DNA from: Escherichia phage Henu7
Direction: 5' to 3' (one strand)
DNA length: 49,526 nt
Sequence record: NC_054894.1
Position numbers and translations under genes: made by a program. Of the stretch, positions 2,957-46,614 are shown in pieces. The notes below the pieces were generated by a model, which saw nothing but the letters and a program-made list of their open reading frames with translations, did no database searches and had not been told where the DNA came from. Positions within the stretch are counted from its first letter, which is position 1, and each line of letters starts with the position of its first letter.

Positions 2957-2973
2957 ATAGCACGTTTTGTTAA
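2957..2973 (+). promoter_or_regulatory. TAGCA-N5-TGTTA palindromic element upstream of tail fibre start
   Basis: ATAGCACGTTTTGTTAA, 18 nt from the tail fibre ATG on the opposite strand; member of the dispersed palindrome family. Confidence 0.4.
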
Positions 2974-3004
2974 TGACAAGTCGGATTATAGCATTGCGCA
3001 AGGC

Positions 3005-3031
3005 ATAAAAAAACCCCGCCGAAGCGGGGCA
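3005..3031 (-). terminator. intrinsic terminator after primase (minus strand)
   Basis: Minus strand reads GCCCCGCTTCGGCGGGG followed by TTTTTTT. Confidence 0.7.
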
Positions 3032-3044
3032 AGAAAGCAATGGT

Positions 3045-4001
3045 TTACCGTGTCGGGAGTAAAGTTTCCGGCTTGTAAAGCTTTCGCTCTATCCCTTGCC
3101 GGAAATTATCGTTAATAGGAAGCATCACGTCAAGTCCTCTCTCCTCAGCGGCAATTATTACATCCTGATCAGTTGACCTGCACACTACGCGCATCTTTCG
3201 ATCTCCTTTGTATCTGTGCGCAACAATCTCAACGTTATAACTTGAGAAGCAAGCCCACACCTCCTGGCCTGTAGAGAGGTGAATGTGTTGAGCGTCAACC
3301 CAATCAACGCACAGATAGATCGTGTTGTCAGTTTTACCAGTCACCGCAACGGAGCCGCGCGTATAGTCCTTTGCATAGAAACTTTTCTCGCCTAGCTCGT
3401 CAATCATGAGGATGTTACACATTTCATCATCTAAGCCATCGCCATGCACAAGGTAGCAAGGGATTGCATGAATAAGCGATTCTCCGCCGTTATCCAGCGA
3501 TTTTACGCCTACAGAGTACATTTCATCATCTGGCGTAGCGATGCCCTCAAAAACGCTTAGAGGCGTTTTTAGCACTCCTTTGGTTCTCTCCATTACTGCA
3601 ACGCAGTTTTCATGTGGAGCCTGGGATCCGAAAGAGTAACCTGATGCGCTGGAGGCTCGCTTGTTCGCCTTAACTATATACTCCTGAGGAACCTTTCCGA
3701 GAAAGCGCCCTAAGATGTTGATGCACTCGCTATATGATTCGCCAGTGAGCTTCATTAGCCAGCCAATACCGCTGTCGTTCCCACAACCGTTGCACACTGC
3801 GCCGCCGTCTCCGTCAGTGCTAAGTTTGTCAGTCCAGCGGAATCTGTCTTTACCTCCGCAGTGGGGGCAAGGTTGGTGTTTCTTGTTGAAAACGTCATTG
3901 CTCAATCCGCAAAGGCTTTGTAGCGCATCGCGCCACATCCCTTTCATGTACGGCAAAACGTCCTCTTTCTGAAACATCATGTTTGGGTGTACTTCTTGCA
4001 T
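3045..4001 (-). CDS. DNA primase (zinc-ribbon plus Toprim-like)
   Basis: Start at ATG 4001 (MQEVHP) with GGAG RBS; CPHCGG...CNGCG zinc-binding motif as in phage primases. Confidence 0.65.
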   Translation of the reverse strand: MQEVHPNMMFQKEDVLPYMKGMWRDALQSLCGLSNDVFNKKHQPCPHCGGKDRFRWTDKLSTDGDGGAVCNGCGNDSGIGWLMKLTGESYSECINILGRFLGKVPQEYIVKANKRASSASGYSFGSQAPHENCVAVMERTKGVLKTPLSVFEGIATPDDEMYSVGVKSLDNGGESLIHAIPCYLVHGDGLDDEMCNILMIDELGEKSFYAKDYTRGSVAVTGKTDNTIYLCVDWVDAQHIHLSTGQEVWACFSSYNVEIVAHRYKGDRKMRVVCRSTDQDVIIAAEERGLDVMLPINDNFRQGIERKLYKPETLLPTR

Positions 4002-4059
4002 GACTCGCTCCAATAAAAAAATCGCGTAGCCGGATGATACCAGATACGCGATCTTTGAT

Positions 4060-4500
4060 TTAGCTATTTGTGCTGTTTATGAAGTCCGACTCTTTCACTA
4101 CGCGCAGCATTTCGTATCGGTCACATTTCGTCGTTAGCGCTTTGCCGTTTGAGTCAAATCTCAGATCTGGACGGCAGAATGAAGCGCGATAGCCCTTGCA
4201 GCCGTTTCGCTTATAGTCGGCGTGAACCTTTTCGGCTCCAGAAACGGAAATCATTCCGCGCTTGCGCCACTGCTGGATAACCTGGTGAGTAACCTTTAAG
4301 CGCCTTGTCATTTCTGCCTGAGATCCGTAATATTCGCAAACGGCATCCAGACGAGCACGCAATCCGGCTTTGACTTCATCCTTTAGAACGTAGTAGCCTG
4401 TTTTTCGCTTGCGCTTTTTCTTGTCCTTACCGCGCTTTACACCGTTGTTGCCATTGATTGTGCGCTTGTCAATTTCGCCAGTTGATGCAGCAATTTTCAT
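4060..4500 (-). CDS. helix-turn-helix DNA-binding protein (candidate early regulator)
   Basis: Start at ATG 4500 with GGAGG RBS; basic region KDKKKRKRK; HTH-like segment SQAEMTRRLKVTHQVIQQWRKRG. Confidence 0.55.
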   Translation of the reverse strand: MKIAASTGEIDKRTINGNNGVKRGKDKKKRKRKTGYYVLKDEVKAGLRARLDAVCEYYGSQAEMTRRLKVTHQVIQQWRKRGMISVSGAEKVHADYKRNGCKGYRASFCRPDLRFDSNGKALTTKCDRYEMLRVVKESDFINSTNS

Positions 4501-4513
4501 ATTAAAACCTCCG

Positions 4514-4532
4514 ATAGCACTTTTTGCTAAAA
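4514..4532 (+). promoter_or_regulatory. palindromic element TAGCA-N5-TGCTA in divergent region between HTH gene and helicase
   Basis: ATAGCACTTTTTGCTAAAA; TATTAT hexamer 22 nt downstream at 4552..4557. Confidence 0.45.
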
Positions 4533-4589
4533 ACATTCAAAACGTATGCGCTATTATACATTCAATCGGTTAACGAATAAAGGTTAAAA

Positions 4590-6590
4590 ATGGCAATTCC
4601 AAACATTGATAAACAGCTTTCCGCCTTGGGTGAGGCGGTAATCAAGGCAATTCAAAATCGCTTTACGTTTGGCGAAATCACCCCATACCCTTACCAGTGC
4701 GTTGCTTACACTGAGATCGCAAAACGCATGAAAAATTACGAGCATCCTTTCTTTGTGAAAGCGTCCGTATCTGCTGGCAAAACCATGATTTTTGCAATGG
4801 TAGCGGCTCAGTGCCAGAGAATGGGGCTTAAAATGATGGTTCTTGCTCGCCAGGGTGAGATCGTAGATCAGGATTCAGAGGAGATCAGTAATTTCGGCGT
4901 GCCTAACTCCGTTTACTGCGCGGCGCTGAAACTCAAGGGAGTACACTTCCCCATCGTTGTTGGTTCCGAGGGAACCGTTTCAAATGGACTCTTTAAGGCG
5001 CTTGGTGACTACGTGCCACACGTTATCGGGATTGACGAATGCCACCAAGTAGATTGGGAGGATTTAGCGGAGGCAATCGAAAACGAGGAGCCGTGGGAGC
5101 AAATGACCACGAAAAAAGGCGAGATTGTCCTGAATGGTGACGGATCCCGCGCTCTAAACAATGACGGCGAACCAATGGAGGGAACCGGACGCACGCAGTA
5201 CACGCTTATCATTCGTGAAATGCAGCGCCGATGCAAAGAGACATACGGGCATGAGTTGCGCATTTTTGGAATGACCGGATCTGAGTTTCGCGGCGTGGTT
5301 CCAATCCTGGTGGAAGATAAGCGCCAGCGCGGATTCTGGCGCGAGCAGGTAACGAACATTGATACCAACTACCTGATCAAGTTCGGCTCCGTTGTGCCTA
5401 CAAACTTTGGCTGCGTAGATGGGTTGGGTTATGACCTTTCAGAGTTCACGGCATCCAGCGAGGACGGCGTAGCAGACTTTGACCAGAAAACCCTCAGGAA
5501 GATGGAGGAGAAGATCCATAAAGATGCAACCATGACGCAAAAAATCATGGCACGCGTTCATGAGATCTGCAAAGACCGCAACGGCGTGCTGGTAACTTGC
5601 GCGGGTGAGCGTCACTGTAAAGAGGCCGCCGCCGCACTTCCGCCAGGGGCAACATACAGGATCATCACTGGCAAGACCGGAGAGAAACAACGTAAGGAAT
5701 GGTTAAAAGAGGCATTCGAGGGAAAAGTAAAATACATTTTCCAGGTTCAAGCACTAACAACTGGCGTAAACGTTCCATATTGGGATACTTCCGTTATCCT
5801 GCGCAAAATAGGATCGCTTACACTGCTGATCCAGCTTTTGGGGCGCGGTATGCGACTGTTAAAGAAATGGCACATTGAGCAAGGATTTAAAAAAGACGAT
5901 CACCTTGTTCTCGACTTTGCCGGATGTATGGACGAGTTGGGGCAACTTTACTTTGATCCTATTCTGGAACAAGCGCAGTATCAGCGCCGTGGCGACAACG
6001 GAAAAGATCCTAAATTCTGCCCTGACTGCGGCACGGAAAACTCATTCTATGCACGCCGTTGCGTTCACGTTGACGAAAACGGAAATCGCTGTGAGTATTT
6101 CTGGAAGTATCGAGAGTGCGAGGATCAGGTAGACCCGCGAACGAAAAAGGTTGTCGTTAAAGGTTGCGGCACTAAAAACGACATATCAGCTAGAATTTGC
6201 CGTTGCTGTGACGTGTCGCTTATTGACCCTAACGAAAAGTTATCCGGCAAGCACTACACTAAAAACGATTGGTGTAATGTAAAATCATTCAGAGTTGACA
6301 TGACCAAAAACCAGCGCGGGATCGTGTTCTGTTATGAGCTTGAGTCTCACGGCGAAACGTTCAAAGCTTATGAGCGATTCTTCCCTGAGTCTGACAACCA
6401 GATCTGCAAGACGCTATGGAGGCAAACGGCGCTCAAGCATATTGCAGATCGCAGGATTGCAGGTGTTACTGCGAGCTATCGCAACGCTCGCAAGATTATG
6501 CAAAACGCGCATCACATTATGGCTCCGAAACGCGTTACGCATCGCAAAAACGCGAAAGGAGAGGACATTATTTATCATCGGGAGTTTTGA
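4590..6590 (+). CDS. SF2 DNA helicase (DExH-box) with C-terminal zinc ribbons
   Basis: Walker A SVSAGKT; DECH box (GIDECHQ); Cys-rich C-terminal clusters CPDCG...C..C. Confidence 0.75.
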   Translation: MAIPNIDKQLSALGEAVIKAIQNRFTFGEITPYPYQCVAYTEIAKRMKNYEHPFFVKASVSAGKTMIFAMVAAQCQRMGLKMMVLARQGEIVDQDSEEISNFGVPNSVYCAALKLKGVHFPIVVGSEGTVSNGLFKALGDYVPHVIGIDECHQVDWEDLAEAIENEEPWEQMTTKKGEIVLNGDGSRALNNDGEPMEGTGRTQYTLIIREMQRRCKETYGHELRIFGMTGSEFRGVVPILVEDKRQRGFWREQVTNIDTNYLIKFGSVVPTNFGCVDGLGYDLSEFTASSEDGVADFDQKTLRKMEEKIHKDATMTQKIMARVHEICKDRNGVLVTCAGERHCKEAAAALPPGATYRIITGKTGEKQRKEWLKEAFEGKVKYIFQVQALTTGVNVPYWDTSVILRKIGSLTLLIQLLGRGMRLLKKWHIEQGFKKDDHLVLDFAGCMDELGQLYFDPILEQAQYQRRGDNGKDPKFCPDCGTENSFYARRCVHVDENGNRCEYFWKYRECEDQVDPRTKKVVVKGCGTKNDISARICRCCDVSLIDPNEKLSGKHYTKNDWCNVKSFRVDMTKNQRGIVFCYELESHGETFKAYERFFPESDNQICKTLWRQTALKHIADRRIAGVTASYRNARKIMQNAHHIMAPKRVTHRKNAKGEDIIYHREF

Positions 6591-6592
6591 AT

Positions 6593-7009
6593 ATGGTTAC
6601 TGACAAAGGCGATTATCTGGAATATTACGAACGGGATCCGAGCGACACACGCAAGGAGGATTCACACCAGGTTGATTGTGTGGCGTGGTTGCGCCACCAT
6701 TACCCACACTTGCTCTTTTGGCACACTGTTAATGAGGGGAGCAAGACGATCACCACCGCGCTGCGTGACGAACAGGCCGGATTGCTAAAAGGAGTATCCG
6801 ACTTTGTTATCCTGATTGGTTCTGGTAAATACCCGTTTGCAGCAATAGAGCTAAAGCAAGCCAACAAATCAGGGAAGCGCAAAGCCTCACCAGTCAGCGA
6901 TAACCAGAAAGCTTTCTTGAGCAAGGTCAGAGCGCTTGGTGGATTTGCCGCTGTGTGTTATGGCGTTAAGCAATTCAAGATTGCGATCTCAGATCTTTTA
7001 TGTGAATAG
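6593..7009 (+). CDS. VRR-NUC domain nuclease
   Basis: Start ATG 6593 with GGAG RBS right after helicase stop; motifs GVSDFVIL and AAIELK are PD-(D/E)xK-like. Confidence 0.65.
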   Translation: MVTDKGDYLEYYERDPSDTRKEDSHQVDCVAWLRHHYPHLLFWHTVNEGSKTITTALRDEQAGLLKGVSDFVILIGSGKYPFAAIELKQANKSGKRKASPVSDNQKAFLSKVRALGGFAAVCYGVKQFKIAISDLLCE

Positions 7010-7024
7010 CACTTTTTGCTAAAA
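7006..7024 (+). promoter_or_regulatory. palindromic element plus hairpin upstream of lipoprotein gene
   Basis: ATAGCACTTTTTGCTAAAA, hairpin GGCGCAAAGGAATGCGCC, CATAAT at 7044..7049, leader CAACGAAACAAAC. Confidence 0.45.
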
Positions 7025-7081
7025 CAGGCGCAAAGGAATGCGCCATAATGCACCCAACGAAACAAACACGGAGAATTAACC

Positions 7082-7360
7082 ATGAAAAAGATGTTATCAG
7101 TAGTTGCTTTATCGCTTTCCATTGTCGGTTGCATGGATAAACCAAAAGCATATATTTGCGGAAATGAAGTGTTTGAGGTTACAAGCGAATACATGAAAGT
7201 TGTAAAAGGTAAAAACACAGGCGTTGTAATGGATAATATCAGCAAAAATAAATACAAGCTGTTTACGCCAATTGGAACAGCTTTTTACACTGTTAACGAT
7301 AGCACAATTGATGTTAGAGTCGGAATCTTTCAGCACACTTTAACTTGCGAGGTGAAATAA
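7082..7360 (+). CDS. small lipoprotein (moron; candidate superinfection-exclusion protein)
   Basis: Signal peptide with lipobox LSIVGC; AT-rich codon usage relative to neighbours; own upstream regulatory unit. Confidence 0.6.
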   Translation: MKKMLSVVALSLSIVGCMDKPKAYICGNEVFEVTSEYMKVVKGKNTGVVMDNISKNKYKLFTPIGTAFYTVNDSTIDVRVGIFQHTLTCEVK

Positions 7361-7361
7361 A

Positions 7362-7498
7362 ATGGCTAAAGACATTCTGGACAACTCAACAATTGATGGT
7401 ATCGAGCAGGTTGATGAAATGGACTTTCACGAATTGCAGCACGGCAAGTATTCAGACATAGCCCTGCGCTCAGGCGGTCATTACCAGGCCGTGAAACC
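7362..7498 (+). CDS. ORF upstream of methyltransferase, probably its N-terminal part separated by an 8-bp tandem duplication
   Basis: Strong RBS GAGGTG before ATG 7362; reading frame runs to 7703; deleting one copy of ACAAGGTT (7510..7525) fuses it in frame to the methyltransferase. Confidence 0.4.
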
Positions 7499-8116: not shown

Positions 8117-8226
8117 TGAAAGATGATATTTCAGCACTTGGAATGCTTTGTGCATTCATGATCGGCGGCGGTTTTTGTTCTTACGCGCTCATTGCGCTAA
8201 TCATCAAAATAGTGGAGTTGATTTAA
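8116..8226 (+). CDS. 36-aa hydrophobic membrane peptide
   Basis: AAGGAG RBS; ATG overlaps the methyltransferase stop (TAATG); sequence MKDDISALGMLCAFMIGGGFCSYALIALIIKIVELI; not in ORF track because of length. Confidence 0.45.
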   Translation: MKDDISALGMLCAFMIGGGFCSYALIALIIKIVELI

Positions 8227-8474: not shown

Positions 8475-8493
8475 ATAGCACTTTTGGTTAAAA
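8475..8493 (+). promoter_or_regulatory. palindromic element (degenerate right half) plus hairpin
   Basis: ATAGCACTTTTGGTTAAAA, hairpin ATGCCCGACTAAAGTCGGGCAT, ATAAT, leader CCAACGAAAACC. Confidence 0.4.
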
Positions 8494-8550
8494 ATGCCCG
8501 ACTAAAGTCGGGCATAATCATTTCCAACGAAAACCACTGAGGAAAACGAA

Positions 8551-8760
8551 ATGAAAATCTACAGCAAAGCAGCCATGGAAATTGCACAGCAAGCAGCACG
8601 CGAGGCCGTTGAGTTGGGCGTTGTCGGCGGTGGCGACCTTGATTGGGCTGCGGCTATGATTTGGCTGAAAATCGCAACCGGACACGCGCCAGTTTTCAAG
8701 TATGAGGAGCGCGGAATTCGTTCAATCGTCGCGTCGATGGAGGGCAAAGATGAAGGTTGA
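8551..8760 (+). CDS. hypothetical protein
   Basis: ORF with RBS GAGGAAAACGAA immediately upstream; follows regulatory unit. Confidence 0.5.
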   Translation: MKIYSKAAMEIAQQAAREAVELGVVGGGDLDWAAAMIWLKIATGHAPVFKYEERGIRSIVASMEGKDEG

Positions 8761-8998
8761 GCAAGGCCGCGAGGCCGTTTGGAATCACGCCAAAGAAACC
8801 GGAATGGCAGACGATATAGCACGAATTGCTAAAATCTTTGATCTGGCTGATGTTAGCATTATCAGCAACGGGAAAATGACTTACTTGCACGAGAGGCCGC
8901 GCAAAATGCATCGCGTTCCAGCAATCCCGACAAAAATCGACTTCAAAGAAGCAATGGAAAAAATTAGAGAGCCGAAAAAGTATTACAAAGGAGAATAG
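8750..8998 (+). CDS. hypothetical protein
   Basis: ATG 8750 with GGAGGG RBS, overlapping the end of the upstream ORF. Confidence 0.45.
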   Translation: MKVEQGREAVWNHAKETGMADDIARIAKIFDLADVSIISNGKMTYLHERPRKMHRVPAIPTKIDFKEAMEKIREPKKYYKGE

Positions 8999-9092
8999 TT
9001 ATCATGTGGCGCTTGCTTGTTCTTCCAATGCCCGTTATCATTGCCGCCGTTGTTATGTACGCACTTGTTATGTGATTTAAGAGGAAAAATTA

Positions 9093-10211
9093 ATGATTCA
9101 GAAAATGACAGACCAGCAGTTTAAAGACGCACGAGCGGAGGGTAAAACCTACAAGCAGATCGCGGAGGAATTTGGCTTGAATGTTCGCACAGTTGAGCGA
9201 CGAGCGGCAAACCTTGCTCGCAAGGGTGAGACTGACGCGAAAGGCGCTCCAGGTTTTGCGGTTGTTCGCGAGTCAGTCCTTACGCGTGCGAACGGCGAGG
9301 AAGTTATGCGCTGGACTATCACCAACAAGGATAAAGAGCAGTTGGAGGCATTAATGCAAGCCGCTATGGAAGCATTCGCAGAGGAAGTGCCACGCCTTGA
9401 TCCTCAGCCTGAAAGCCGCAAAGACTACAGCGAGAGCCTAGCGCTATACCCAATCTTTGATATGCACATTGGCGCAATGGCTCACAAGCATGAGTGTGGT
9501 GAGAATTGGGATACGGCAACAGCCGAAAATGTCATGAATGACTTCTTTGATTATGCGGTTGAGTGTGCGCCAAATAGCGAGAAAGCCGTGCTCCTGATTG
9601 GTGGAGATATGCTTCACAGTGACGGCCTTGAGGCTGTAACACCTGCCAGCGGTCACGTTCTGGATCAGGATAGCCGCTACGCCAAACTTGTTTATGTCGC
9701 AATCCGAGCAACGCGCCGCGCTATCTCCTTGATGTTGACCAAGCACAAAGAGGTTGAAATTCAGGTGATCGAGGGCAATCATGACCAATCAGGCATGATC
9801 TGGCTACGCGCAGCAATGGCTGCGGCATACGAAAACGAGCCACGAGTTACGGTTGATGTTTCTCCCCGCGTGGTGCATCACACGCAGTACGGAAAAACCT
9901 TCCTCGCGTATCATCACGGTCACACCGTGCGCAAGCCTGAAACGTTATTGATGATGTGTGCGGCAGATTGGCGCGAGGATTTTGGCAAATCAAAATCAAT
10001 GTATGCTCATGTAGGCCATTGGCATCACCAGACCGTAACAGAAACCAGCCTGGGGATTGTTGAAGTTCACAGCACTATGGCGGCTAAAGATGCGTATGCG
10101 GCACGCGGCGGCTGGCGCTCTCGTCGTCGCGCGGCGGTTATCATCTACGACAAAGAGCACGGCGAGATCGGGAGATTTATGTTCTACCCTGAAATGATGG
10201 AGTCAAAATAA
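9093..10211 (+). CDS. HTH domain fused to calcineurin-like metallophosphoesterase
   Basis: N-terminal HTH YKQIAEEFGLNVRTVERR; metallophosphoesterase motifs DMHIG, GGDMLHSDG, GNHD, HHGH, GHWHH; RBS AAGAGGA. Confidence 0.6.
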   Translation: MIQKMTDQQFKDARAEGKTYKQIAEEFGLNVRTVERRAANLARKGETDAKGAPGFAVVRESVLTRANGEEVMRWTITNKDKEQLEALMQAAMEAFAEEVPRLDPQPESRKDYSESLALYPIFDMHIGAMAHKHECGENWDTATAENVMNDFFDYAVECAPNSEKAVLLIGGDMLHSDGLEAVTPASGHVLDQDSRYAKLVYVAIRATRRAISLMLTKHKEVEIQVIEGNHDQSGMIWLRAAMAAAYENEPRVTVDVSPRVVHHTQYGKTFLAYHHGHTVRKPETLLMMCAADWREDFGKSKSMYAHVGHWHHQTVTETSLGIVEVHSTMAAKDAYAARGGWRSRRRAAVIIYDKEHGEIGRFMFYPEMMESK

Positions 10212-10381: not shown

Positions 10382-10403
10382 CATTTAACTTCATGAGCTT
10401 ACA

Positions 10404-10434
10404 AAGGGTTAGCATTTGCTAGCCCTTTTTTTAT
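10404..10434 (+). terminator. intrinsic terminator
   Basis: Hairpin GGGTTAGCATTTGCTAGCCC followed by TTTTTTT; the stem itself contains a TAGCA...TGCTA palindrome. Confidence 0.75.
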
Positions 10435-11745: not shown

Positions 11746-12138
11746 TCATGCGATACCGAATTTTTTGCGCAGTGCATCATAATCGCATCTATTAGATTTT
11801 GTGTTGAATAATTCATCGTCGCTTAACTCGTCAAGGTGAAACAGATCGTAAATGTATTTATTGCTCTCACCCTCCAGGCTATACAGTTCAAACCCAAACG
11901 GCCTCTTGTGCGAGCCGTGGCACGTCACCACGCCTTTATCTATCCCAAGATAGCCCAATGTAGCCATTCGCGGTATAAACTCAAGAGAGACGCTTGAGGC
12001 GAATTTGCGAGGCGTCATATTGGCGGCTCTTGCGAGCCGCTCACATTCTTTGTGCTGAAAAACAAATCTGGCTAAGTGCTGACGGTTAAACCAATCGTAA
12101 CTTTCGCAAAACTTATACAGATCCAGCAGAAACATCAT
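11746..12138 (-). CDS. hypothetical protein
   Basis: ATG follows the upstream stop by 3 nt (TGA TAA ATGATG), suggesting translational coupling. Confidence 0.5.
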   Translation of the reverse strand: MMFLLDLYKFCESYDWFNRQHLARFVFQHKECERLARAANMTPRKFASSVSLEFIPRMATLGYLGIDKGVVTCHGSHKRPFGFELYSLEGESNKYIYDLFHLDELSDDELFNTKSNRCDYDALRKKFGIA

Positions 12139-13719: not shown

Positions 13720-13774
13720 CTTAAAGTCTCCTTGTTGGTTGACCCGTATTATAGGTCAACCATCTTACAGCCTT

Positions 13775-13795
13775 TTGGCAATTCGTGCTATTTTA
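13775..13795 (-). promoter_or_regulatory. palindromic element plus hairpin plus TATAAT upstream of P-loop gene
   Basis: Minus strand reads AAAATAGCACGAATTGCCAAAA, hairpin GGTTGACC-TATAAT-ACGGGTCAACC, RBS AAGGAG. Confidence 0.45.
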
Positions 13796-14416: not shown

Positions 14417-14470
14417 GATTTTCCCCTTTCGTTTGATGTGGTTGCATAATAGCGGATCTAATAGACCCGC

Positions 14471-14492
14471 TTTTAACAAAAAGTGCTATTTT
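14471..14492 (-). promoter_or_regulatory. palindromic element plus hairpin
   Basis: Minus strand reads AAAATAGCACTTTTTGTTAAAA then GCGGGTCTATTAGATCCGC, TATTAT, leader CAAACGAAAGG. Confidence 0.45.
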
Positions 14493-15718: not shown

Positions 15719-15774
15719 TCGTTTCTCCTTGTTCTTTGTTGATGGCGCTACTATACCAGGCCGCAGCGCCGGAG

Positions 15775-15795
15775 TTTTAACAAAAGGTGCTATCA
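15775..15795 (-). promoter_or_regulatory. palindromic element plus hairpin plus TATAGT
   Basis: Minus strand reads GATAGCACCTTTTGTTAAAA, hairpin GGCGCTGCGGCCTGGTATAGTAGCGCC, leader, RBS. Confidence 0.45.
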
Positions 15796-15871
15796 GTTCC
15801 AGAATGAGTGGCGGGGCGCACGTTTACCATCACCGCCGTAGTGGTCATTGGCAACTGCAATCATCCAGGCG

Positions 15872-16547: not shown

Positions 16548-16604
16548 TTTTGATTCCTCAGTTTCGTTTTGTTGAGGCAATGATAGCGCATCGCCTCTGA
16601 TTGG

Positions 16605-16625
16605 TTTTAGCAAATCGTGCTATTC
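16605..16625 (-). promoter_or_regulatory. palindromic element
   Basis: Minus strand reads GAATAGCACGATTTGCTAAAA then TATCAT hexamer and CAACAAAACGAAAC leader. Confidence 0.45.
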
Positions 16626-16887: not shown

Positions 16888-16944
16888 TTTCGTTTTCCTC
16901 AGTTCGTTTCGATGAATGCATTATGCCAAATCCAGATCACGGAG

Positions 16945-16965
16945 TTTTAGCAAAAAGTGCTATTC
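16945..16965 (-). promoter_or_regulatory. palindromic element plus CATAAT upstream of leftward early operon
   Basis: Minus strand reads GAATAGCACTTTTTGCTAAAA, then CATAAT, then leader. Confidence 0.45.
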
Positions 16966-17253
16966 AATCGGTAGTTAGATGATTTGGTGATTTTCTGACC
17001 TGCATTTTGATGGTTAGTTTGATGTGCGTCAGCTTTTGACGAGATTTGATGATTGTTGATTAGATTTGATTGAATTTGATTGTGGGAATCATCATGGTCT
17101 GACGATGCCGTTTTTGCGCTCTCGAAAACTCCGTTCTGTTATCTTCTGTTTACACTCGTTTCCTCTTGTTACCGAAAGTACGGTGGCGTAGTTTGTTCGC
17201 GTTTTTCGCGTGGCAGAAACAAAAAAAACTTTTAATCTCCCTATAAACAACTA

Positions 17254-17296
17254 ATAAAATCAATAGTTTATTTTATATATATTATATTTGTTTTCA
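17254..17296. repeat. AT-rich conserved element, copy 1 (second copy at 47770..47815)
   Basis: 17-bp identical core ATAAAATCAATAGTTTA followed by a TTTATAT(A/G)TAT-type tract. Confidence 0.7.
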
Positions 17297-17549
17297 CTAC
17301 GTTATACTTGTTCCATATGGTATGGGGTGGTTATGGGATTTTATTATTGGTGGTATTGGTTAATTTATAGGCATGTTCCGCTCAGGATGTGTGCGATTCA
17401 TCATTTCGTTGTGGTTGCTTTGGGTGACATATACATATCTATTATGGCCTCCGAAAAAACTGTAACACCGGTAACATGGAAAAAACACGTTTTGTGGTTA
17501 AGCAAATCAGCAACTTACGACAAATTTTGTTTTTCGGCTCAAAAAAAAC

Positions 17550-17578
17550 TTGTGGAAACCGATTGTAACATGCATAAT
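17550..17578 (+). promoter_or_regulatory. candidate sigma70-type promoter for rightward early operon
   Basis: TTGTGG, 17-nt spacer, CATAAT, preceded by an A8 tract; followed by CGAAACGAACAAATGGAGG leader and ATG 17611. Confidence 0.4.
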
Positions 17579-17610
17579 GCACCCCGAAACGAACAAATGG
17601 AGGTAAAACG

Positions 17611-18036
17611 ATGTCAGATCAATCATTTGGCGATCAGTTGCGTGCAGCAGCGCGAATGTTGGCGAGTGGTGAGCGTGATGAAATCATCATGACCGACTAC
17701 CAGTTACAGCAAGCGTCCGGCAGGGAGAAAATCAACCCAAGCCATATCCGTACAACTATGGCGCGAGAGGTTCGCACCCTGGGAGCTATCAGCGTGAAGC
17801 GAATCACGGATCCGATGGGGTACGTTTGCACATTCAACCCTGACCCGAAAAAGCGAGCGATTGCCAGCGACGAGCTACCAGCAATCAAGGCGCGTGCGGC
17901 TAACAAGGCACTGAAAGCAATTGCAGACGTGATGCCAAATCTCACAGACCTGGAGGGCGAGCAGTTGCAGGGCGCTATCATTGCAGTGCAGCGCTACCAG
18001 GATTTAATCAAGAAGCAAATCAAAGAGGAGGCTTAA
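17611..18036 (+). CDS. hypothetical early protein
   Basis: RBS AAATGGAGG; first ORF of the rightward early array. Confidence 0.55.
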   Translation: MSDQSFGDQLRAAARMLASGERDEIIMTDYQLQQASGREKINPSHIRTTMAREVRTLGAISVKRITDPMGYVCTFNPDPKKRAIASDELPAIKARAANKALKAIADVMPNLTDLEGEQLQGAIIAVQRYQDLIKKQIKEEA

Positions 18037-18306: not shown

Positions 18307-18325
18307 ATAGCACTTTTTGTTAAAA
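18307..18325 (+). promoter_or_regulatory. palindromic element plus hairpin plus ATAAT
   Basis: ATAGCACTTTTTGTTAAAA, hairpin TGCCCCGCGCGAGTGGGGCA, ATAAT, leader CTCAACGAAACGAA. Confidence 0.45.
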
Positions 18326-18383
18326 CTGCCCCGCGCGAGTGGGGCATAATAGCCTCAACGAAACGAATTGAGGAGATTGCAAA

Positions 18384-19333: not shown

Positions 19334-19352
19334 ATAGCACGAATTGCTAAAA
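19334..19352 (+). promoter_or_regulatory. palindromic element plus hairpin containing TATAGT
   Basis: ATAGCACGAATTGCTAAAA, hairpin GGGGTTGCGC-TATAGT-AACCCC, leader ATCGAAACGAAAC. Confidence 0.45.
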
Positions 19353-19413
19353 CACCAGATCGGGGTTGCGCTATAGTAACCCCATCGAAACGAAACACGC
19401 TGAGGAGCACAAA

Positions 19414-20524: not shown

Positions 20525-20740
20525 ATGATTATTTCACACAACGTTGAACCAAGCGCAAACACTGCGCGTGATATGATTGCCGGAATGCCGCCAAAATCTC
20601 ACAGAATTGTACGTGTACGCGGTTATAACTTCAACGTAAGCCAAACACTCAAGGAAATTTTAGCCTTGCCAGAGGTCGATACAGCGCTTGTGGGAGTGCA
20701 TACAAATGAGTATGTTTCTTTCCACATTGTGACGAAATAG
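20525..20740 (+). CDS. hypothetical protein
   Basis: RBS AAAGGGG; stop TAG lies inside the next palindromic element. Confidence 0.5.
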   Translation: MIISHNVEPSANTARDMIAGMPPKSHRIVRVRGYNFNVSQTLKEILALPEVDTALVGVHTNEYVSFHIVTK

Positions 20741-20755
20741 CACGAATTGCTAAAA
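20737..20755 (+). promoter_or_regulatory. palindromic element plus TATAAT
   Basis: ATAGCACGAATTGCTAAAA, GC-rich segment, TATAAT, leader CCAACCAACGAGGAG. Confidence 0.45.
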
Positions 20756-20812
20756 CGCGCTCCGACAGGGGCGCTATAATTCACCCATACCAACCAACGA
20801 GGAGCAATAAAA

Positions 20813-21477: not shown

Positions 21478-21708
21478 ATGATTGAGATCAAATTCGATGG
21501 CAACTCTAAGCCATTCAACGGCGTACAGATCCACAAAGATGCAACACACGCGGTAGCGGGTCGCAATTTCGGTACTTACTTTAAACTCAATGGCGAATGG
21601 TATTTCACAGTTTTCACTTGTCACGCGCTGAAAGTGGCGGTTATGTCTCATGACTTTGATATCAGCGATCACATCATGGACGGCGCAGAAATCACAGAGT
21701 TTAAATAG
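21478..21708 (+). CDS. hypothetical protein
   Basis: RBS AAAGGAG; stop TAG lies inside the next palindromic element. Confidence 0.5.
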   Translation: MIEIKFDGNSKPFNGVQIHKDATHAVAGRNFGTYFKLNGEWYFTVFTCHALKVAVMSHDFDISDHIMDGAEITEFK

Positions 21709-21723
21709 CACTTTTTGCTAAAG
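21705..21723 (+). promoter_or_regulatory. palindromic element plus hairpin containing TATAGT (module copy A)
   Basis: ATAGCACTTTTTGCTAAAG, hairpin GAGGCCATTGG-TATAGT-GGCCTC, leader TTGAAAGCAACCAA. Confidence 0.45.
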
Positions 21724-21786
21724 ACTTTCCGCGAGGCCATTGGTATAGTGGCCTCATTGAAAGCAACCAATCAAAAGGAAAACGAA

Positions 21787-22122
21787 ATGAAATTAGTTCG
21801 CAATGCGGTGTATGGCCTGGAAACAAGCGGCGGAATGATCCAGGTTTTTCATGTGGCAAACAACGGACACATTCAGATCGCGATGTATCGTGACGCTCGC
21901 GGCGCTTGCCAGCCTGGTTATAGTGGCGAAGTGCGAATGATGTTCAGCATGATTCAGCGGCAAGCTGATCACATCAATAACCACGATCACTGGATCGAAG
22001 ATCTCAAACGCAAAGGTGTGATGATAGCAAGTCACGTTATAGACCCGATGAAGCTCACCTCTCGCGACTATCGCGAAATGGCGAGAAAGGCAGCAAAGAA
22101 ACTGAATATCACGAATTGCTAA
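21787..22122 (+). CDS. hypothetical protein
   Basis: Start ATG 21787 with RBS AAAGGAAAACGAA; the longer track ORF reads through the regulatory unit. Confidence 0.5.
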   Translation: MKLVRNAVYGLETSGGMIQVFHVANNGHIQIAMYRDARGACQPGYSGEVRMMFSMIQRQADHINNHDHWIEDLKRKGVMIASHVIDPMKLTSRDYREMARKAAKKLNITNC

Positions 22123-22124
22123 AG
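22106..22124 (+). promoter_or_regulatory. palindromic element (degenerate left half) plus hairpin containing TATAGT (module copy B)
   Basis: ATATCACGAATTGCTAAAG followed by a near-identical copy of the 21724..21780 module. Confidence 0.4.
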
Positions 22125-22187
22125 ACTTTCCGCGAGGCCATTGCTATAGTGGCCTCATTGAAAGCAACCACGCAAACAGGAGATAAA

Positions 22188-23011: not shown

Positions 23012-23209
23012 ATGGCTTCTAACACACTAAAGCGAATCGGCGTTATCATGCTAATTATCGGAGGGTCATTGCTAACAGAGCCAGGTTTTGCAAACACGGC
23101 TGGAGGTATGGCGCTGTTAATAGGCGGTCTTATTGGTGGCTACATGGACGGCGTAAAGGCTGGTCGGCGCGAGGCGTTCGGAGGCGAAGATAAAAATCCG
23201 ATCAAATAG
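23012..23209 (+). CDS. small membrane protein (two predicted transmembrane segments)
   Basis: RBS AAGAGG; hydrophobic stretches IGVIMLIIGGSLL and GMALLIGGLIGGYM. Confidence 0.5.
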   Translation: MASNTLKRIGVIMLIIGGSLLTEPGFANTAGGMALLIGGLIGGYMDGVKAGRREAFGGEDKNPIK

Positions 23210-23224
23210 CACGAATTGCTAAAA
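23206..23224 (+). promoter_or_regulatory. palindromic element plus hairpin (module copy C)
   Basis: ATAGCACGAATTGCTAAAA followed by a sequence related to module copies A and B, with TAAAGT. Confidence 0.4.
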
Positions 23225-23290
23225 CTTCCGCGAGGGCATTTGGTAAAGTGTCCTCATTGAAGCAAAGCAACCAATCAAGGAGATAACGAA

Positions 23291-24207: not shown

Positions 24208-24226
24208 ATAGCACTTTTTGCTAAAA
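24208..24226 (+). promoter_or_regulatory. palindromic element plus hairpin containing TATAGT
   Basis: ATAGCACTTTTTGCTAAAA, hairpin GGGGTAGGCTGG-TATAGT-TACCCC, leader ATCGAAACGAAAC. Confidence 0.45.
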
Positions 24227-24282
24227 CTCCGATGGGGTAGGCTGGTATAGTTACCCCATCGAAACGAAACGGAGATATCAAA

Positions 24283-26813: not shown

Positions 26814-28385
26814 ATGCTTATATGGGAAGATTTAACAGTGGCGCAGAAACGCGCCATTAAAGAAATGAGTGAATACTCTTTTGAGAAGATGATCCGAATC
26901 TGGTTCCAGTTGCTACAGGGTCAGAAATTCCTGGGTAACTGGCATTTCAGTTATTTGTGTCACGAGGTGGAGAAAATCATTTCCGGCGAGTCGCAAAACG
27001 TGATCTTTAACATCACGCCAGGCTCAGGCAAAACTGAGGTTTTCTCGATCCATATGTCGCCCTATGCGTCACTGAAAAGCAGGAAGGTGCGAAACCTCAA
27101 CCTGTCATTCTCTGATGGGCTTGTCCAGCAGAACAGCAACCGGATAAAAGAAATTATAGGCTCTCCAGAGTGGCAAGAGTTATGGCCTGGCAAGCTGGCA
27201 AAAGCAAGCGCAAAAGATCTGATTGTTCAGGACGGCAACGGCAAGGTTAAATTGCAGGTCAACTCTCGCTCCATCGGCGGCCAGGTAACGGGTTTGCGTG
27301 GCGGCTATATGGATGATGGATTTACCGGAATGTTGGTACTTGACGATCCAGATAAACCTGACGACATGTTTTCAAAGGTGCGGCGCGAAGCGATTCACAA
27401 CCGCCTAAAAAACACCGTCCGATCTCGTCGAATGAAGGACACAACGCCTATCGTGATGGTTCAGCAGCGGCTACACGTCAACGATTCGACGTGGTTTATG
27501 ACGAGCGGCGGCATGGGCGGCATTGAGTTTAAAGTTGTGAGCATTCCGGCGCTGGTCACGAAAGAGTATGGCGATTCGCTCCCTGATTGGTTAAAACCAG
27601 AGTTTGAGCGTGACGTGCTGAATAGCGATCCAGTTTACATTGACGGCGTGGCGCACTACTCATTCTGGCCTGCAAAGGAGAGTGCAAAGGACTTGCTCTC
27701 GCTACGCGAAGCTGATCCATATACTTTTGCGTCTCAGTACCAGCAGCAGCCAATAGCGCTGGGTGGCAACGTATTCAAGGTGGATTGGTTCCAGTTTTAC
27801 GGCGACGGCGAGAAATGCACGCTGCCTAAACCGGATCGCTTTGAATATACGTTTATCACTGGCGATACTGCGCAGAAAGCCGGAGAGCTTAACGACTACT
27901 CTGTTTTCTGTTATTGGGGCATGTTCAAGAATCGCGTTTACTTCATTGACGGCATCCGTGGAAAGTGGGAGGCTCCAGAACTTGAAACCAACTTCAAGGC
28001 GTTTGTCAATCAATGCTGGAAGCGTAATAAAGAGTGCGGAAGCTTGCGACGGATCCACATAGAGGACAAAGCGAGCGGTACGGGTCTGATTCAGGGGGCG
28101 CAAAAGAGCTTACCTATTGATATAAATCCCGTTCAGCGAAGCACGGACAAAGTTACCCGCGCAATGGATGCCGCGCCAGTTATGCGAGCAGGACGCGTTG
28201 CGCTGCCAGAGAGTCACCCGATGTTAAACGAGATTCTCGCAGAGGTAGCAGCTTTCACTTTCGACGACTCGCACCCGAACGACGATATCGTAGATAACAT
28301 CGTTGATGCTGTTAACGTTGAAATGAACCTGGCAGACGATCCAGTAGCGCGAATGAAAAAGCTTGCTGGGCTACGGAAGAAATAG
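26814..28385 (+). CDS. terminase large subunit
   Basis: 523 aa; P-loop-like ITPGSGKTE; acidic nuclease-type C-terminal half; followed by portal gene. Confidence 0.75.
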   Translation: MLIWEDLTVAQKRAIKEMSEYSFEKMIRIWFQLLQGQKFLGNWHFSYLCHEVEKIISGESQNVIFNITPGSGKTEVFSIHMSPYASLKSRKVRNLNLSFSDGLVQQNSNRIKEIIGSPEWQELWPGKLAKASAKDLIVQDGNGKVKLQVNSRSIGGQVTGLRGGYMDDGFTGMLVLDDPDKPDDMFSKVRREAIHNRLKNTVRSRRMKDTTPIVMVQQRLHVNDSTWFMTSGGMGGIEFKVVSIPALVTKEYGDSLPDWLKPEFERDVLNSDPVYIDGVAHYSFWPAKESAKDLLSLREADPYTFASQYQQQPIALGGNVFKVDWFQFYGDGEKCTLPKPDRFEYTFITGDTAQKAGELNDYSVFCYWGMFKNRVYFIDGIRGKWEAPELETNFKAFVNQCWKRNKECGSLRRIHIEDKASGTGLIQGAQKSLPIDINPVQRSTDKVTRAMDAAPVMRAGRVALPESHPMLNEILAEVAAFTFDDSHPNDDIVDNIVDAVNVEMNLADDPVARMKKLAGLRKK

Positions 28386-28400
28386 CACGAATTGCTAAAA
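28382..28400 (+). promoter_or_regulatory. palindromic element between terminase and portal genes
   Basis: ATAGCACGAATTGCTAAAA, then terminator-like hairpin GGCTGGACTTTTCCAGCC plus T-run at 28413..28440. Confidence 0.4.
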
Positions 28401-28456
28401 GCGTGTACAATGAAGGCTGGACTTTTCCAGCCTTTTTTATTATGGGAGATCAGATA

Positions 28457-32615: not shown

Positions 32616-32634
32616 CATAAAAACATATTGCACG

Positions 32635-32654
32635 TTTAGCAAAAAGTGCTATCA
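32635..32654 (-). promoter_or_regulatory. palindromic element (inverted orientation) plus hairpin upstream of major capsid gene
   Basis: Plus strand reads TTTAGCAAAAAGTGCTATCA, then hairpin GGCTGTTAATCGCTAACAGCC, RBS AAGGAGA. Confidence 0.4.
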
Positions 32655-32696
32655 TTGAGGCTGTTAATCGCTAACAGCCTTTAAGGAGAAAGAAAC

Positions 32697-42550: not shown

Positions 42551-42554
42551 AACA

Positions 42555-42579
42555 AACCCCGCATTGCGGGGTTTTTTAT
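42555..42579 (+). terminator. intrinsic terminator
   Basis: Hairpin CCCCGCATTGCGGGG followed by TTTTTT. Confidence 0.75.
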
Positions 42580-42603
42580 TGGTTGCTATAATGCAACCTC
42601 AAA

Positions 42604-42622
42604 ACAGCACAAATTGTTAAAA
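42604..42622 (+). promoter_or_regulatory. degenerate palindromic element upstream of J-like gene
   Basis: ACAGCACAAATTGTTAAAA, preceded by hairpin GGTTGC-TATAAT-GCAACC at 42581..42598. Confidence 0.35.
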
Positions 42623-42637
42623 CTGGAGGCCAAAACT

Positions 42638-45600: not shown

Positions 45601-46174
45601 GGATTTATCCTCAAACGTCACGAGGTTGGATCAGTCTATCGCGAGCGAGACTCAAGCGAGATCCAGTGCTGACACTGCGTTGTCAACTCGTGTTGGTAAA
45701 ACTGAATCGGCAATTACTCAGAAGCTTGACTCTTGGGTAGACAACGGATCTATAGGTGCTCAGTACGCTCTCAAGCTTGGGATTAAACGTGCTGGTGTTG
45801 AGTACACGGCTGGAGTTTCGCTATCGCTAATCCAGTCAGGTAGCGAGATAAAATCTCAATTCCTGGTTGATGCGGCGAGGTTCGGGGTAATGACTAGGCA
45901 GGGAGGAAGCTACACATTGCCGTTTGTAGTTGATAATGGAACGGTTATCATGAATACGGCGCTAATTAAAAACGGCTCTATAACCAACGCAATGATTGGT
46001 AACGTGATTCAGTCAAATAATTATGTTGCTGGCAAGTCCGGTTGGAGGCTGGACAAAAACGGAAACCTTGAGATCAATGGCAGCGCCGGAAATGGCAGAC
46101 TGACCATTAACAATAACATTATCGCGGTTTACGATGGTAATGGTGTCTTGAGGGTTCGAATGGGGTTGTTCTAA
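42638..46174 (+). CDS. tail tip / central tail fibre protein (lambda J-like host specificity protein)
   Basis: About 1178 aa after M/L/K/I; RBS GGAGG; C-terminal region with ETEAR-type repeats. Confidence 0.8.
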   Translation: MISGNKGGSSKPYTPKEMEDNLISINKIKILLAVSDGEVDGEFSLKNLYLDDVPVQNADGSLNYSGVSAEFRPGTQTQDYIKGFSDTSSEVTIQRDLAQNNPYSIAVTNKSLSAIRIKILMPQGYKQEDNGDLVGVSVQYAVDMAVDGGSFKRVLTDTITGKTKSGYDRSQRIDLPAFNEQVILRVSRITPDSNTGRVVDAIRLQSYAEVVDAKFRYPLTGLVYVEFDSELFPTQLPNISIKKKWKLIKVPVNYDPDSRTYSGSWNGLFKTAWSNNPAWVLYDLITNQRYGLDQRELGIEIDKWSIYEAAQYCDQMVPDGKGGLEPRYLCDVVIQSQIEAFNLIRDICSIFRGMSFWNGESLSIVVDKPRDPSYIFSNDNVVNGDFQYTFASEKSMYTQCNVTFDDEQNMYSQDIEGVFDTEAALRFGHNPTSITAIGCTRRSEANRRGRWILKTNLRSTTVNFATGLEGMIPTIGDVIAIADNFWSSNLTLNLSGRVMEVSGLQVFLPFRVDARPGDFILINKPDGKPVKRTISRVSADGKTIELNVGFGFDVKPDTVFAIDRTDLALQQYVVTGITRGDDTEQFTYSITAVEYDPNKYDEIDYGVNIDDRPTSIVNPGVMRAPENVQVSSYSRIVQGQSVETMVVSWDKVEYASLYDVQWRKDNSNWLNVPQTANKEVSVEGIYSGNYFVRVRSVSASGSTSPWSGVVSAALTGKVGEPKMPINLTASDNEIFGIRVKWGMPEGAGDTAYIELQQAPDVDGMASEENATLLTLVPYPQMEYWHATLPPGYINWYRVRSVDRIGNVSAWTDFVRGMSSTNVDDVLGDILDDILNSAGFEEFKENAVDTANKVKDQAQSVIQNALAIDTNLRWNRVENGKRKAEHGQALELIANETEARIQAVDVLRTEFDEGISSNITEVKTLISNEAETRASQVQQLESTFTTEIGKTNANVSSAQQAIAKETEARTQAVSSLDSKFTGQINGVKQDLSSNVTRLDQSIASETQARSSADTALSTRVGKTESAITQKLDSWVDNGSIGAQYALKLGIKRAGVEYTAGVSLSLIQSGSEIKSQFLVDAARFGVMTRQGGSYTLPFVVDNGTVIMNTALIKNGSITNAMIGNVIQSNNYVAGKSGWRLDKNGNLEINGSAGNGRLTINNNIIAVYDGNGVLRVRMGLF

Positions 46175-46179
46175 CAGAA

Positions 46180-46209
46180 AAGGGAGCCTTGCGGCTCCCT
46201 CTTTTTTTA
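46180..46209. terminator. intrinsic terminator between convergent J-like gene and leftward gene
   Basis: Hairpin GGGAGCCTTGCGGCTCCC followed by TCTTTTTTT. Confidence 0.7.
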
Positions 46210-46539
46210 CATCAATTTGTTGTGGTCAACAGGGATTCTGTTTGTTTGCTTGGTGATCATATCAAGCTTGTATTCATCGCCGCGCTTCCACTCGAATCGA
46301 AGGGTATACGTGTTAGCGTCACCGTAGCACATTACGTGCTTGAATTTTCGCAAGTGCTTATCAAAGATCGCGTTTGTGCTCTCCTCAATCTTCAACGTCC
46401 GATCTGAGCAGTTTACAACGGCGACGGTTGAGCCAGTAAGAGACATTCTGGAAGCTTCAACCGGATAGCCGATATTAACGTTCAAAGCCATAGCGTTTAA
46501 GGGAGCTACAAGAGCCATAGCGAGCATGATTTTTTTCAT
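46207..46539 (-). CDS. secreted/periplasmic small protein (candidate superinfection-exclusion or receptor-masking factor)
   Basis: Start ATG 46539 (MKKIMLAMALVAPLNAMA...) with signal peptide; own regulatory unit upstream on minus strand. Confidence 0.55.
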   Translation of the reverse strand: MKKIMLAMALVAPLNAMALNVNIGYPVEASRMSLTGSTVAVVNCSDRTLKIEESTNAIFDKHLRKFKHVMCYGDANTYTLRFEWKRGDEYKLDMITKQTNRIPVDHNKLM

Positions 46540-46596
46540 TTGCATTTCCTCGTTTCGTTAAGTTGAAATGAGTATAGCCCCATTTGCGTGGCTTGT

Positions 46597-46614
46597 TTTA
46601 GCAATTTGTGCGGT
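46597..46614 (-). promoter_or_regulatory. palindromic element plus TATACT
   Basis: Minus strand reads CCGCACAAATTGCTAAAA, then TATACT and leader AACGAAACGAGGA. Confidence 0.4.

Follow-up and report, generated by a model that had tools for sequence, protein, structure and literature searches.

According to a recent study (German, ... Kropinski, Misra 2024, PHAGE 5:173; PMC11447400), the genome of phage TLS carries a 21-nt direct repeat, aaATAGCACnnnTTGnTAAAA, in T, G and A subtypes. The repeat was found there in 21 places, 18 of them intergenic, approximately 76 nt ahead of start codons and mostly oriented the way transcription runs, and was stated also for T1, Rtp and Rogue1. Its authors floated stoperators, enhancer sites and UP elements as roles and listed its function among the open questions (PMC11447400). 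Here we describe this element in Escherichia phage Henu7 (NC_054894.1), our window being the whole stretch of 49,526 nucleotides. The Henu7 element agrees with the TLS repeat in consensus and direction, with start codons here at +72 to +85. Judged by sequence and position it is a consensus marbox, a putative site for the host regulators MarA, SoxS and Rob (RamA in Klebsiella).

The site of MarA, SoxS and Rob has been published as gcannwwntgnnaaa (PMC12052159) and, in a stricter form, as GCAHWWWWTGYYAAA (PMC6900184). At micF the site for RamA, SoxS and Rob lies at approximately -41/-41.5, over the -35 position, and the activator displaces sigma region 4 (PMC8811837, PMC9638938, PMC9178005). A marbox in the promoter spacer of pbpG serves repression by MarA, SoxS and Rob (PMC12052159). 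T4-type phages carry promoter and stem-loop cassettes known as PeSLs (Arbiol 2010; Comeau 2014; PMC2839356, PMC4122927).

Megablast placed the Henu7 window as a T1-like siphovirus of the Drexlerviridae, with 91-97% identity over most of the window to the Escherichia phages IsaakIselin and JohannLBurckhardt and to the Enterobacter phage vB_EclS_AS5. IsaakIselin (Tempevirinae, Henuseptimavirus) is about 94% identical to the window. The accessible text of the TLS paper holds nothing on an 18-bp link to a -10 element, a start site, hairpins, a marbox match, repressor-type placements or breakpoints. A literature search returned no further treatment of the repeat, the AHP24 and Rogue1 papers being silent on it, and no paper linking marbox, Rob or SoxS to T1-like phages. 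In the papers that could be searched, neither the marbox and class II reading nor the repressor-type copies, the covarying hairpins or the link to breakpoints was found.

The repeat and its promoter cassette

A sequence-only reading of this DNA had described the element as a dispersed family of palindromes, TAGCA-N5-TGCTA, and the family is real. Exact palindromes numbered 12 against 0.08 expected, and those with at most one mismatch 19 against 1.9. Counted as the 20-mer ATAGCAC-N3-TTGYTAAAAC, the window holds 24 copies, far over chance, and the copies at 8475, 42604 and 46597 are poor palindromes but good 20-mers. A copy was present at every position which that reading had given except 10404, where the spacing is wrong (TAGCA-TT-TGCTA) and the sequence is a plain intrinsic terminator (10403..10428, + strand) outside the family. 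Its list was also incomplete, missing the copies at 4076 (- strand), 8816 (+) and 49148 (+). A match to the repeat at 30356 was rejected as chance.

A motif search in relatives, as the same reading had proposed, found that the cassettes recur in T1, TLS and Rtp and across Drexlerviridae subfamilies. For the family-wide search, IMG/VR was scanned for ATAGCACNNNTTGNTAAAA. The pattern occurred in many copies per contig in contigs of approximately 46-52 kb, T1, TLS and Rtp included, and elsewhere as singletons. Conservation figures were drawn from 403 distinct cassettes extracted from these IMG/VR loci, the informative positions being those the search pattern left free.

Downstream of the 20-mer the copies follow a common plan. 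In 18-19 copies, 18 bp separate the end of the 20-mer from a TATAAT-like hexamer (19 bp in two copies and 17 bp in two). In 19 of the 24 copies, a spacing of 17-19 leads to a hexamer that has both A2 and T6 and matches at 4 or more of its 6 positions, compared with approximately 1.2 copies expected by chance. Among the 403 cassettes the hexamer occupies positions 39-44, with A2 and T6 each at 83%, and an extended -10 TGn is apparent from G at position 37 (-14; 77%) and the preceding T (46%). C50-A51 forms a classic CA start 7 nt past the hexamer and is followed by an A-rich leader, a ribosome-binding site (RBS) and ATG. This conserved leader reads A(A/T)CGAAACGAA. In the window, 72-85 nt, and mostly 75-76 nt, separate base 1 of the 20-mer from the start codon. 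The 20-mer itself spans approximately -50 to -31, in place of a -35 element. Another leader, ACCAATCAGGAG, also recurs, in alternation with (C)AACGAAACGAA, for example at 21756-21786; it is found many times in Webervirus Alina and is among the commonest 10-mers of that Webervirus genome.

The hexamer, leader, RBS and ATG reported by the sequence-only reading were thus all present, in a layout more regular than it described. Its distance of approximately 22 nt from TTGCTA to the hexamer holds in nearly every complete copy. Upstream stop codons do fall inside the element in 7 copies, at the TAG of the 20-mer, and lie within -7 to +1 in 7 others, and orientation equals the direction of the downstream gene in every complete cassette.

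As had been suggested, these units at gene boundaries are promoter modules, and not canonical -35/-10 promoters: a canonical sigma70 scan of the window gave 23 sites against 23.5 expected, with no cassette among them. A canonical promoter using TTGCTA as its -35 was rejected, as this would need a 22-nt spacer, and 17 nt downstream the copies vary and are rich in G+C. A sigma54 promoter (TGGCAC-N5-TTGC, GG/GC 10 bp apart) was likewise rejected, as the element, TAGCAC-N3-TTGC, is two bases short and has AG for GG. The sigma54 pattern occurred in the window twice against 2.8 expected, never at a cassette. The best reading of each unit is a self-contained promoter cassette which would be used by host sigma70 RNA polymerase. 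A DNA-binding protein very probably takes part at these units, in agreement with the earlier proposal. We infer the transcription start sites, as well as the binding, identity and timing of the protein discussed below, from the DNA and its comparison.

The marbox match and class II geometry

The published MarA/SoxS/Rob pattern gcannwwntgnnaaa matched the window exactly at 19 sites, compared with 1.17 expected. Exact matches to the stricter GCAHWWWWTGYYAAA numbered 10 in the window against 0.025 expected, and 11 in T1, 12 in IsaakIselin and 8 in Webervirus Alina. Copies of the T-type and A-type agree with all 15 of its 15 positions. The consensus of Martin et al. 1999 is reported to be AYnGCACnnWnnRYYAAAY; searched with at most one mismatch, it gave 23 sites in the window against 0.83 expected, and 13 of its 14 specified positions are met by the element. 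Positions 9-10 hold only A or T in the 403 cassettes and position 14 is C in 57% and T in 35%, so the phage copies vary just as the marbox consensus permits, with W at 9-10 and with Y at 14. The mar marbox of E. coli K-12, ATGCCACGTTTTGCTAAAT, has CACGTTTTGCTAAA in common with the phage copies.

The geometry also matches. In E. coli micF (NC_000913.3), ACAGCACTGAATGTCAAAAC is followed after 18 bp by TAGAAT, with the annotated RNA 5' end 7 nt on. The phage counterpart is ATAGCACnnnTTGCTAAAAC, 18 bp (17-19) and a TATAAT-like hexamer, in the same orientation as in micF and with an equal spacing of the A site (GCAC) and B site (YAAA). The -35 position of the cassettes is occupied by a non-consensus AAAACn (AAAACA in micF), and in each of the 18-19 complete cassettes YAAA is the part nearer to the -10 and GCAC the part farther from it. 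The predicted centre of the phage 20-mer is -40.5. Class II marbox promoters (micF; lpxC, lpxL and rfaY) thus resemble the phage cassettes in their 20-bp asymmetric site, GCAC/YAAA spacing, forward orientation, poor -35 (AAAACn), 18 bp to the -10 and centre near -41. By contrast, native marboxes are degenerate and occur one per promoter, whilst a virulent phage here carries approximately 20 near-consensus copies, each tied to a hairpin and a conserved leader.

The palindrome had been proposed as the operator of a dimeric protein, and this does not hold well. Positions 1, 7, 11, 17 and 18 are conserved at 96-100% without dyad partners. Nor does the palindrome behave as the recognition unit, as its left arm is invariant and the pair 4/14 is asymmetric (G 99% versus C 57% or T 35%). 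Given this asymmetric conservation and the fixed orientation to the -10, a monomeric site for a pair of helix-turn-helix (HTH) motifs, that is a marbox, fits better than a dimer operator.

Copies along the genome

The gene order runs from recombination genes through the lateral tail fibre, primase, regulator, helicase, Dam, SbcD-like nuclease and lysis genes to a leftward early block, rightward small early genes, terminase, and head and tail genes. On the + strand, the complete cassette before the helicase gene (4514..4589) has the 20-mer ATAGCACTTTTTGCTAAAAA, 18 bp, TATTAT, a CA start near 4564 and its ATG at 4590. At 7006..7081 the spacing is 18 bp, the hexamer CATAAT, the start near 7056 and the ATG at 7082, and the TAG within the 20-mer provides the stop codon of the gene upstream. 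The cassette at 8475..8550 carries ATAGCACTTTTGGTTAAAAA, 18 bp and CATAAT (ATG 8551). Those at 18307..18383 (18 bp, CATAAT, start near 18357, ATG 18384) and 19334..19413 (18 bp, TATAGT, start near 19384, ATG 19414) follow the same plan, and in the latter a hairpin, GGGGTT..AACCCC, brackets the -10. IsaakIselin homology stops at 20736, the edge of the cassette at 20737..20812 (18 bp, TATAAT, ATG 20813), and resumes at 22105, directly before the ATATCAC variant at 22106..22187 (19 bp, TGcTATAGT, ATG 22188). Complete rightward cassettes also stand at 21705..21786 (19 bp, TGgTATAGT, ATG 21787), 23206..23290 (18 bp, TGgTAAAGT, ATG 23291) and 24208..24282 (18 bp, TGgTATAGT, ATG 24283).

On the - strand, a complete cassette precedes the second helicase/ATPase gene (13720..13791; 18 bp, TATAAT). 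An IsaakIselin indel breakpoint (14434/14446) falls inside the cassette at 14417..14489 (18 bp, TATTAT). The cassette at 15719..15793 (18 bp, TGgTATAGT) lies next to the homology block end at 15798, and that at 16548..16623 (18 bp, TATCAT) next to the block edges 16624/16625. The first leftward early gene has its cassette at 16888..16963 (18 bp, TGgCATAAT), and a further one, with ACCGCACAAATTGCTAAAAC, 18 bp and TATACT, is found at 46540..46614.

An 'A-type' subfamily, ACrGCAyAAATAGCTAAAyA, has AG in place of TG at positions 12-13 and a 17-bp spacing. Its copies are at 4057-4076 (-) and 49148-49167 (+) in Henu7, at 31443 in T1 and at 23055 in Alina. Their position is conserved, ahead of the primase gene and of the gene following exonuclease VIII. 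The complete A-type cassette before the primase gene (4002..4076, - strand) has ACAGCACAAATAGCTAAATC, 17 bp and TGgTATCAT, with ATG at 4001. That after the exonuclease VIII gene (49148..49223, + strand) has ACAGCACAAATAGCTAAACA, 17 bp and TGtTATAAT, its end being approximate as the start codon was taken from IsaakIselin. The A-type may form a separately regulated class.

One copy is intragenic, within the open reading frame (ORF) 8750-8995 (8816..8865, + strand; ATAGCACGAATTGCTAAAAT, 18 bp, TAGCAT), and is kept in T1 (40308). It is possibly an internal promoter for 9093-10211. The same DNA also codes for an HTH-like peptide (..DDIARIAKIF..), and it may have been retained through coding constraint or as an internal promoter.

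Other copies ('orphans') stand outside complete cassettes. The major capsid gene has a sigma70-type promoter (32628..32655, + strand; TTGCAC, 16 bp, TATCAT) whose 16-bp spacer is filled by a reversed 20-mer (32633..32652, - strand), a repressor position. This arrangement also occurs in T1, IsaakIselin and Webervirus Alina, and the T1 counterpart, TTGACG-16-TATTAT, is an annotated promoter in AY216660. As in pbpG, the site lies in the spacer of the promoter, and in the phage it is this position that suggests repression. The lateral tail fibre gene (- strand) has an extended -10, TGcTATAAT (2985..2993, - strand), and a 20-mer lying backward in its 5' leader at approximately +3 to +22 (2957..2976, + strand), as in T1 and TLS (P57/DR11). 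Just past a terminator, the J-like tail tip promoter also has an extended -10 TGcTATAAT (42584..42592, + strand). A forward 20-mer follows in its leader at approximately +6 to +25, immediately before the RBS (42604..42623, + strand), and T1 has the same.

The divergent regulator gene (4500 to 4060) shares the 20-mer of the helicase cassette (4514), which in this gene falls in the 5' leader, just before the RBS. The TATAAT of the regulator promoter (4553..4558, - strand) overlaps the helicase -10 on the opposite strand (TATTAT, 4552-4557), an arrangement kept in T1 and Alina. As the hexamers overlap at 4552-4558, only one polymerase could bind at a time and the pair would act as a built-in switch. 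In the terminase/portal gap, a 20-mer is followed by a true intrinsic terminator (28415-28441) in place of the -10 and hairpin (28382..28441, + strand). This copy keeps the cassette frame, with the portal ATG at +75.

The orphan sites are used in two orientations, which argues for a protein site and against an RNA signal or an UP element. The orphan copies of the capsid gene, the two tail genes and the regulator sit where a bound protein would be expected to repress.

The window also has AT-rich non-coding regions at 16960-17610 (GC content 0.37) and 47582-48088 (0.34), with a common 32-nt stretch, TAATAAAATCAATAGTTTAtTTTATATaTATT, identical at 30 of 32 positions (17252-17283 and 47768-47799). 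Each has a canonical sigma70-type promoter, at approximately 17549 (TTGTGG-17-CATAAT) ahead of the DUF7174 gene and at 48030 (TTGACT-17-TACAAT) ahead of exonuclease VIII. These regions may be immediate-early control or origin regions. A tRNA scan of the window found nothing.

Readers of the site, hairpins and rival explanations

No AraC-type protein was found in the phage. With E. coli MarA as the query, the best E values that phmmer --max and tblastn reached were 0.46-2.4. Pfam found no AraC/HTH_18 family and no MotA/AsiA-like family among 69 non-structural ORFs, a PHROGs search was uninformative, and a sequence search against PDB was empty. Rob is expressed constitutively at a high level (PMC9178005). 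We give an even chance to class II activator-dependent promoters read by host MarA, SoxS or Rob. A marbox-binding activator already there when the DNA enters would take the place of sigma region 4 at the -35 and recruit polymerase to approximately 19 early and middle cassettes. The constitutively abundant Rob would be the likeliest activator, with MarA and SoxS acting under stress. Bound to the copies in the capsid spacer and in the tail fibre, tail tip and regulator leaders, the same protein would keep those promoters down until it was titrated on replicated genomes or lost after host shut-off. The wider proposal, that the Drexlerviridae have wired approximately 20 early and middle promoters per genome to MarA/SoxS/Rob as a 'co-sigma' whilst holding off capsid and tail promoters, is tentative and would more probably fail than hold.

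Several points weigh against reading by host regulators. G-type copies (GAAT) have one mismatch to GCAHWWWWTGYYAAA, and at position 19, a Y in the Martin consensus, 73% of copies carry A. The dyad TAGCA/TGCTA keeps 4 or 5 of its five positions, which is compatible with a dimeric protein. Neither transcript 5' ends nor binding data for any T1-like phage were found in the searchable literature. Two phage HTH proteins (Cro/C2-like and SbcD-like) are conserved in T1, Alina and Motto, and the regulator gene has a copy in its own leader, which resembles autoregulation. Cells contain little MarA and SoxS, both of which are unstable, and most Rob is sequestered unless inducers are present (PMC9178005). 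With approximately 24 sites on each of hundreds of genome copies, the supply of activator would be exceeded. Finally, classical T1-resistant E. coli mutants map to fhuA/tonB and not to rob, which makes strict dependence on one factor unlikely; redundancy of the three regulators or basal activity of the extended -10 would have to be invoked.

The strongest rival keeps the activator-dependent promoters and has the 20-mer read by a phage protein, which we consider unlikely. A Cro/C2-like HTH protein (4060..4500, - strand), an SbcD-like phosphoesterase with an N-terminal HTH resembling sigma70 region 4 (9093..10211, + strand; alternatively a candidate hairpin nuclease) or a winged-helix-like early protein of the DUF7174 type would bind the dyad near -42, activate much as lambda CI does at PRM, and repress over the promoter and leader sites. 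Lambda CI activates PRM from an operator centred at -42, and the dyad centre of the phage site, at approximately -42, shares that position. The site between TATAAT and RBS in the regulator gene's own leader, the annotation of the T1 homologue of the regulator as P22 C2-like, and the conservation of both HTH proteins across the family also speak for it. The DUF7174 protein (17611..18036, + strand), encoded by the first gene after a canonical promoter, is a weak candidate. Its AlphaFold model (predicted local distance difference test score, pLDDT, 80) and that of a conserved 130-aa protein (11746-12138; pLDDT 73) are both weakly winged-helix-like, and neither had a significant match in PDB nor anything AraC-like.

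Against a phage reader, the asymmetric conservation reaches non-dyad positions and is exactly that of the marbox consensus, and orientation to the -10 is strict. If the reader were an unrelated protein, agreement with the marbox at 13 of 14 positions and with the micF spacing would be coincidence. The two HTH proteins named as binders by the sequence-only reading are not specifically supported, and the recognition helix of the C2-like protein is strongly different in Motto, where the sites are identical. A factor made by the phage would leave capsid and tail promoters free at infection and shut them later, the wrong order for a lytic cycle, which would favour a factor present at infection. Compared with lambda CI or P22 C2 at PRM, Henu7 shares the dyad near -42, a C2-like protein and a site in that protein's own leader, but differs in asymmetric conservation, strict orientation, virulence and the lack of a lysogeny module. 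The middle promoters of T4, which join a MotA box (TGCTTtA, 11-13 bp from the -10 and centred near -30) to a sigma70 -10, are similar in having an upstream box with TGCT in place of the -35. Henu7 differs from them in the 22 bp between TTGCTA and the -10, and no MotA/AsiA-like family was found by Pfam.

'Pseudomonas phage Motto' (ON843697) has a GC content of 44.5% and a full set of enterobacterial-type cassettes. Its stated P. aeruginosa host is thus doubtful and the test of host range that it would offer is uninformative. The SbcD/Mre11-like protein (9093-10211) is an unusual fusion, its HTH matching Pfam Sigma70_r4_2 (E 1.2e-5), and the HTH core, IAExxGxxxRxVExR, shows no change between T1, Webervirus Alina and Motto. 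The protein could target the hairpin-bearing cassettes.

The G+C-rich hairpins of the cassettes are real and under structural selection. Cassette segments 21-56 folded at a native mean of -10.7 kcal/mol, compared with -6.9 and -5.6 kcal/mol for chimeras with one arm swapped. Covariation was measured as a pairwise count of compensatory changes: where related cassettes had changed on both sides, pairing was kept in 208 cases and lost in 24, events that are not independent. As the arms lie at approximately -30 to +5, a transcript started by the cassette itself cannot form the hairpin. The hairpins do not have the form of intrinsic terminators: they are followed by CA(A/T)CGAAAC without a U-tract, and only 28382 and the unrelated 10403-10428 qualify. 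The hairpin bracketing the -10 is a separately selected structure, most likely acting in read-through RNA from the upstream gene, where a processing site is one possibility; it could also be an antisense terminator or a DNA cruciform.

Recombination as the primary function, with promoter activity secondary, is improbable. Here the 20-mer and hairpin would be boundaries for module exchange, similar to PeSLs, and the HTH-SbcD-like nuclease may cut extruded hairpins; cleavage of hairpins by SbcCD-type nucleases is well known. Homology-block edges against IsaakIselin at 15798, 16624/16625, 20736 and 22105 all lie at most 5 bp from cassette 5' ends, so that 5 of 26 edges do so against approximately 0.13 expected, and the edges 21779 and 24285 are at the downstream start codon. 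In our main reading, too, the cassettes are junctions at which related phages exchange gene modules. Against recombination as the primary role, the fixed phasing of 20-mer, -10, start, RBS and ATG in hundreds of distinct cassettes indicates selection on expression, and ordinary homologous recombination gives breakpoints at repeats without any dedicated function. PeSLs set a precedent (PMC2839356, PMC4122927), being small repeated cassettes of promoter and GGGG..CCCC stem-loop before small early genes which coincide with indel or replacement junctions, as in Henu7. They differ in having near-canonical -35/-10 elements, where the Henu7 cassettes have no -35 and TTGCTA 22 nt from the -10. Their stem-loops are also reported as terminators, whereas those of Henu7 bracket the -10 and, with the exception of 28382, lack a U-tract.

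An element read by no dedicated protein, contacted like an UP element by the alpha C-terminal domains (alpha-CTDs) of RNA polymerase to boost an extended -10, is quite improbable. The A/T-rich centre at approximately -44 to -39 is near the proximal UP subsite, TGn is present in about half of the cassettes, and this role is among those proposed in the accessible text of the TLS paper (PMC11447400). Nevertheless, ATAGCAC and TTG-TAAA, the invariant blocks, contain G/C and are not of the kind preferred by alpha-CTD, the A-run at -36 to -32 is off the UP positions, and conserved copies in spacer and leaders, in either orientation, would be left unexplained.

A module acting on transcripts begun elsewhere, as a processing site, terminator or L5-type 'stoperator' (the last also raised in the accessible TLS text; PMC11447400), is highly improbable even though the selected hairpins would form in read-through RNA, as these lack a U-tract except at 28382, an Rfam scan of the window gave 0 matches at the gathering score, the 20-mer keeps a constant distance to the -10 and start-site signature, and orphan 20-mers occur in both orientations to transcription, which also counts against the RNA-processing role once suggested for the 20-mer.

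Few coliphages and Klebsiella phages are as common as the T1-like phages, which contaminate laboratories and fermenters, are candidates for therapy and are represented in the BASEL collection. Just 3-10 canonical promoters are found in each of their genomes. Class II marbox promoters would make a question acknowledged as open in the 2024 TLS paper directly and cheaply testable. If a phage protein reads the site instead, its regulon is now defined, comprising approximately 19 activated and 4-5 repressed promoters. If host regulators do so, the cassettes would form a set of compact, portable, activator-dependent promoters, and this would offer a clear example of a lytic phage that runs and times its genes by means of the host's stress regulon. 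Late genes would come on once the fixed supply of host protein had been titrated on replicated phage genomes or had decayed following host shut-off. Bile salts, salicylate, oxidative stress and antibiotics would then also influence how the phage develops, and phage productivity would be linked to antibiotic or bile exposure.

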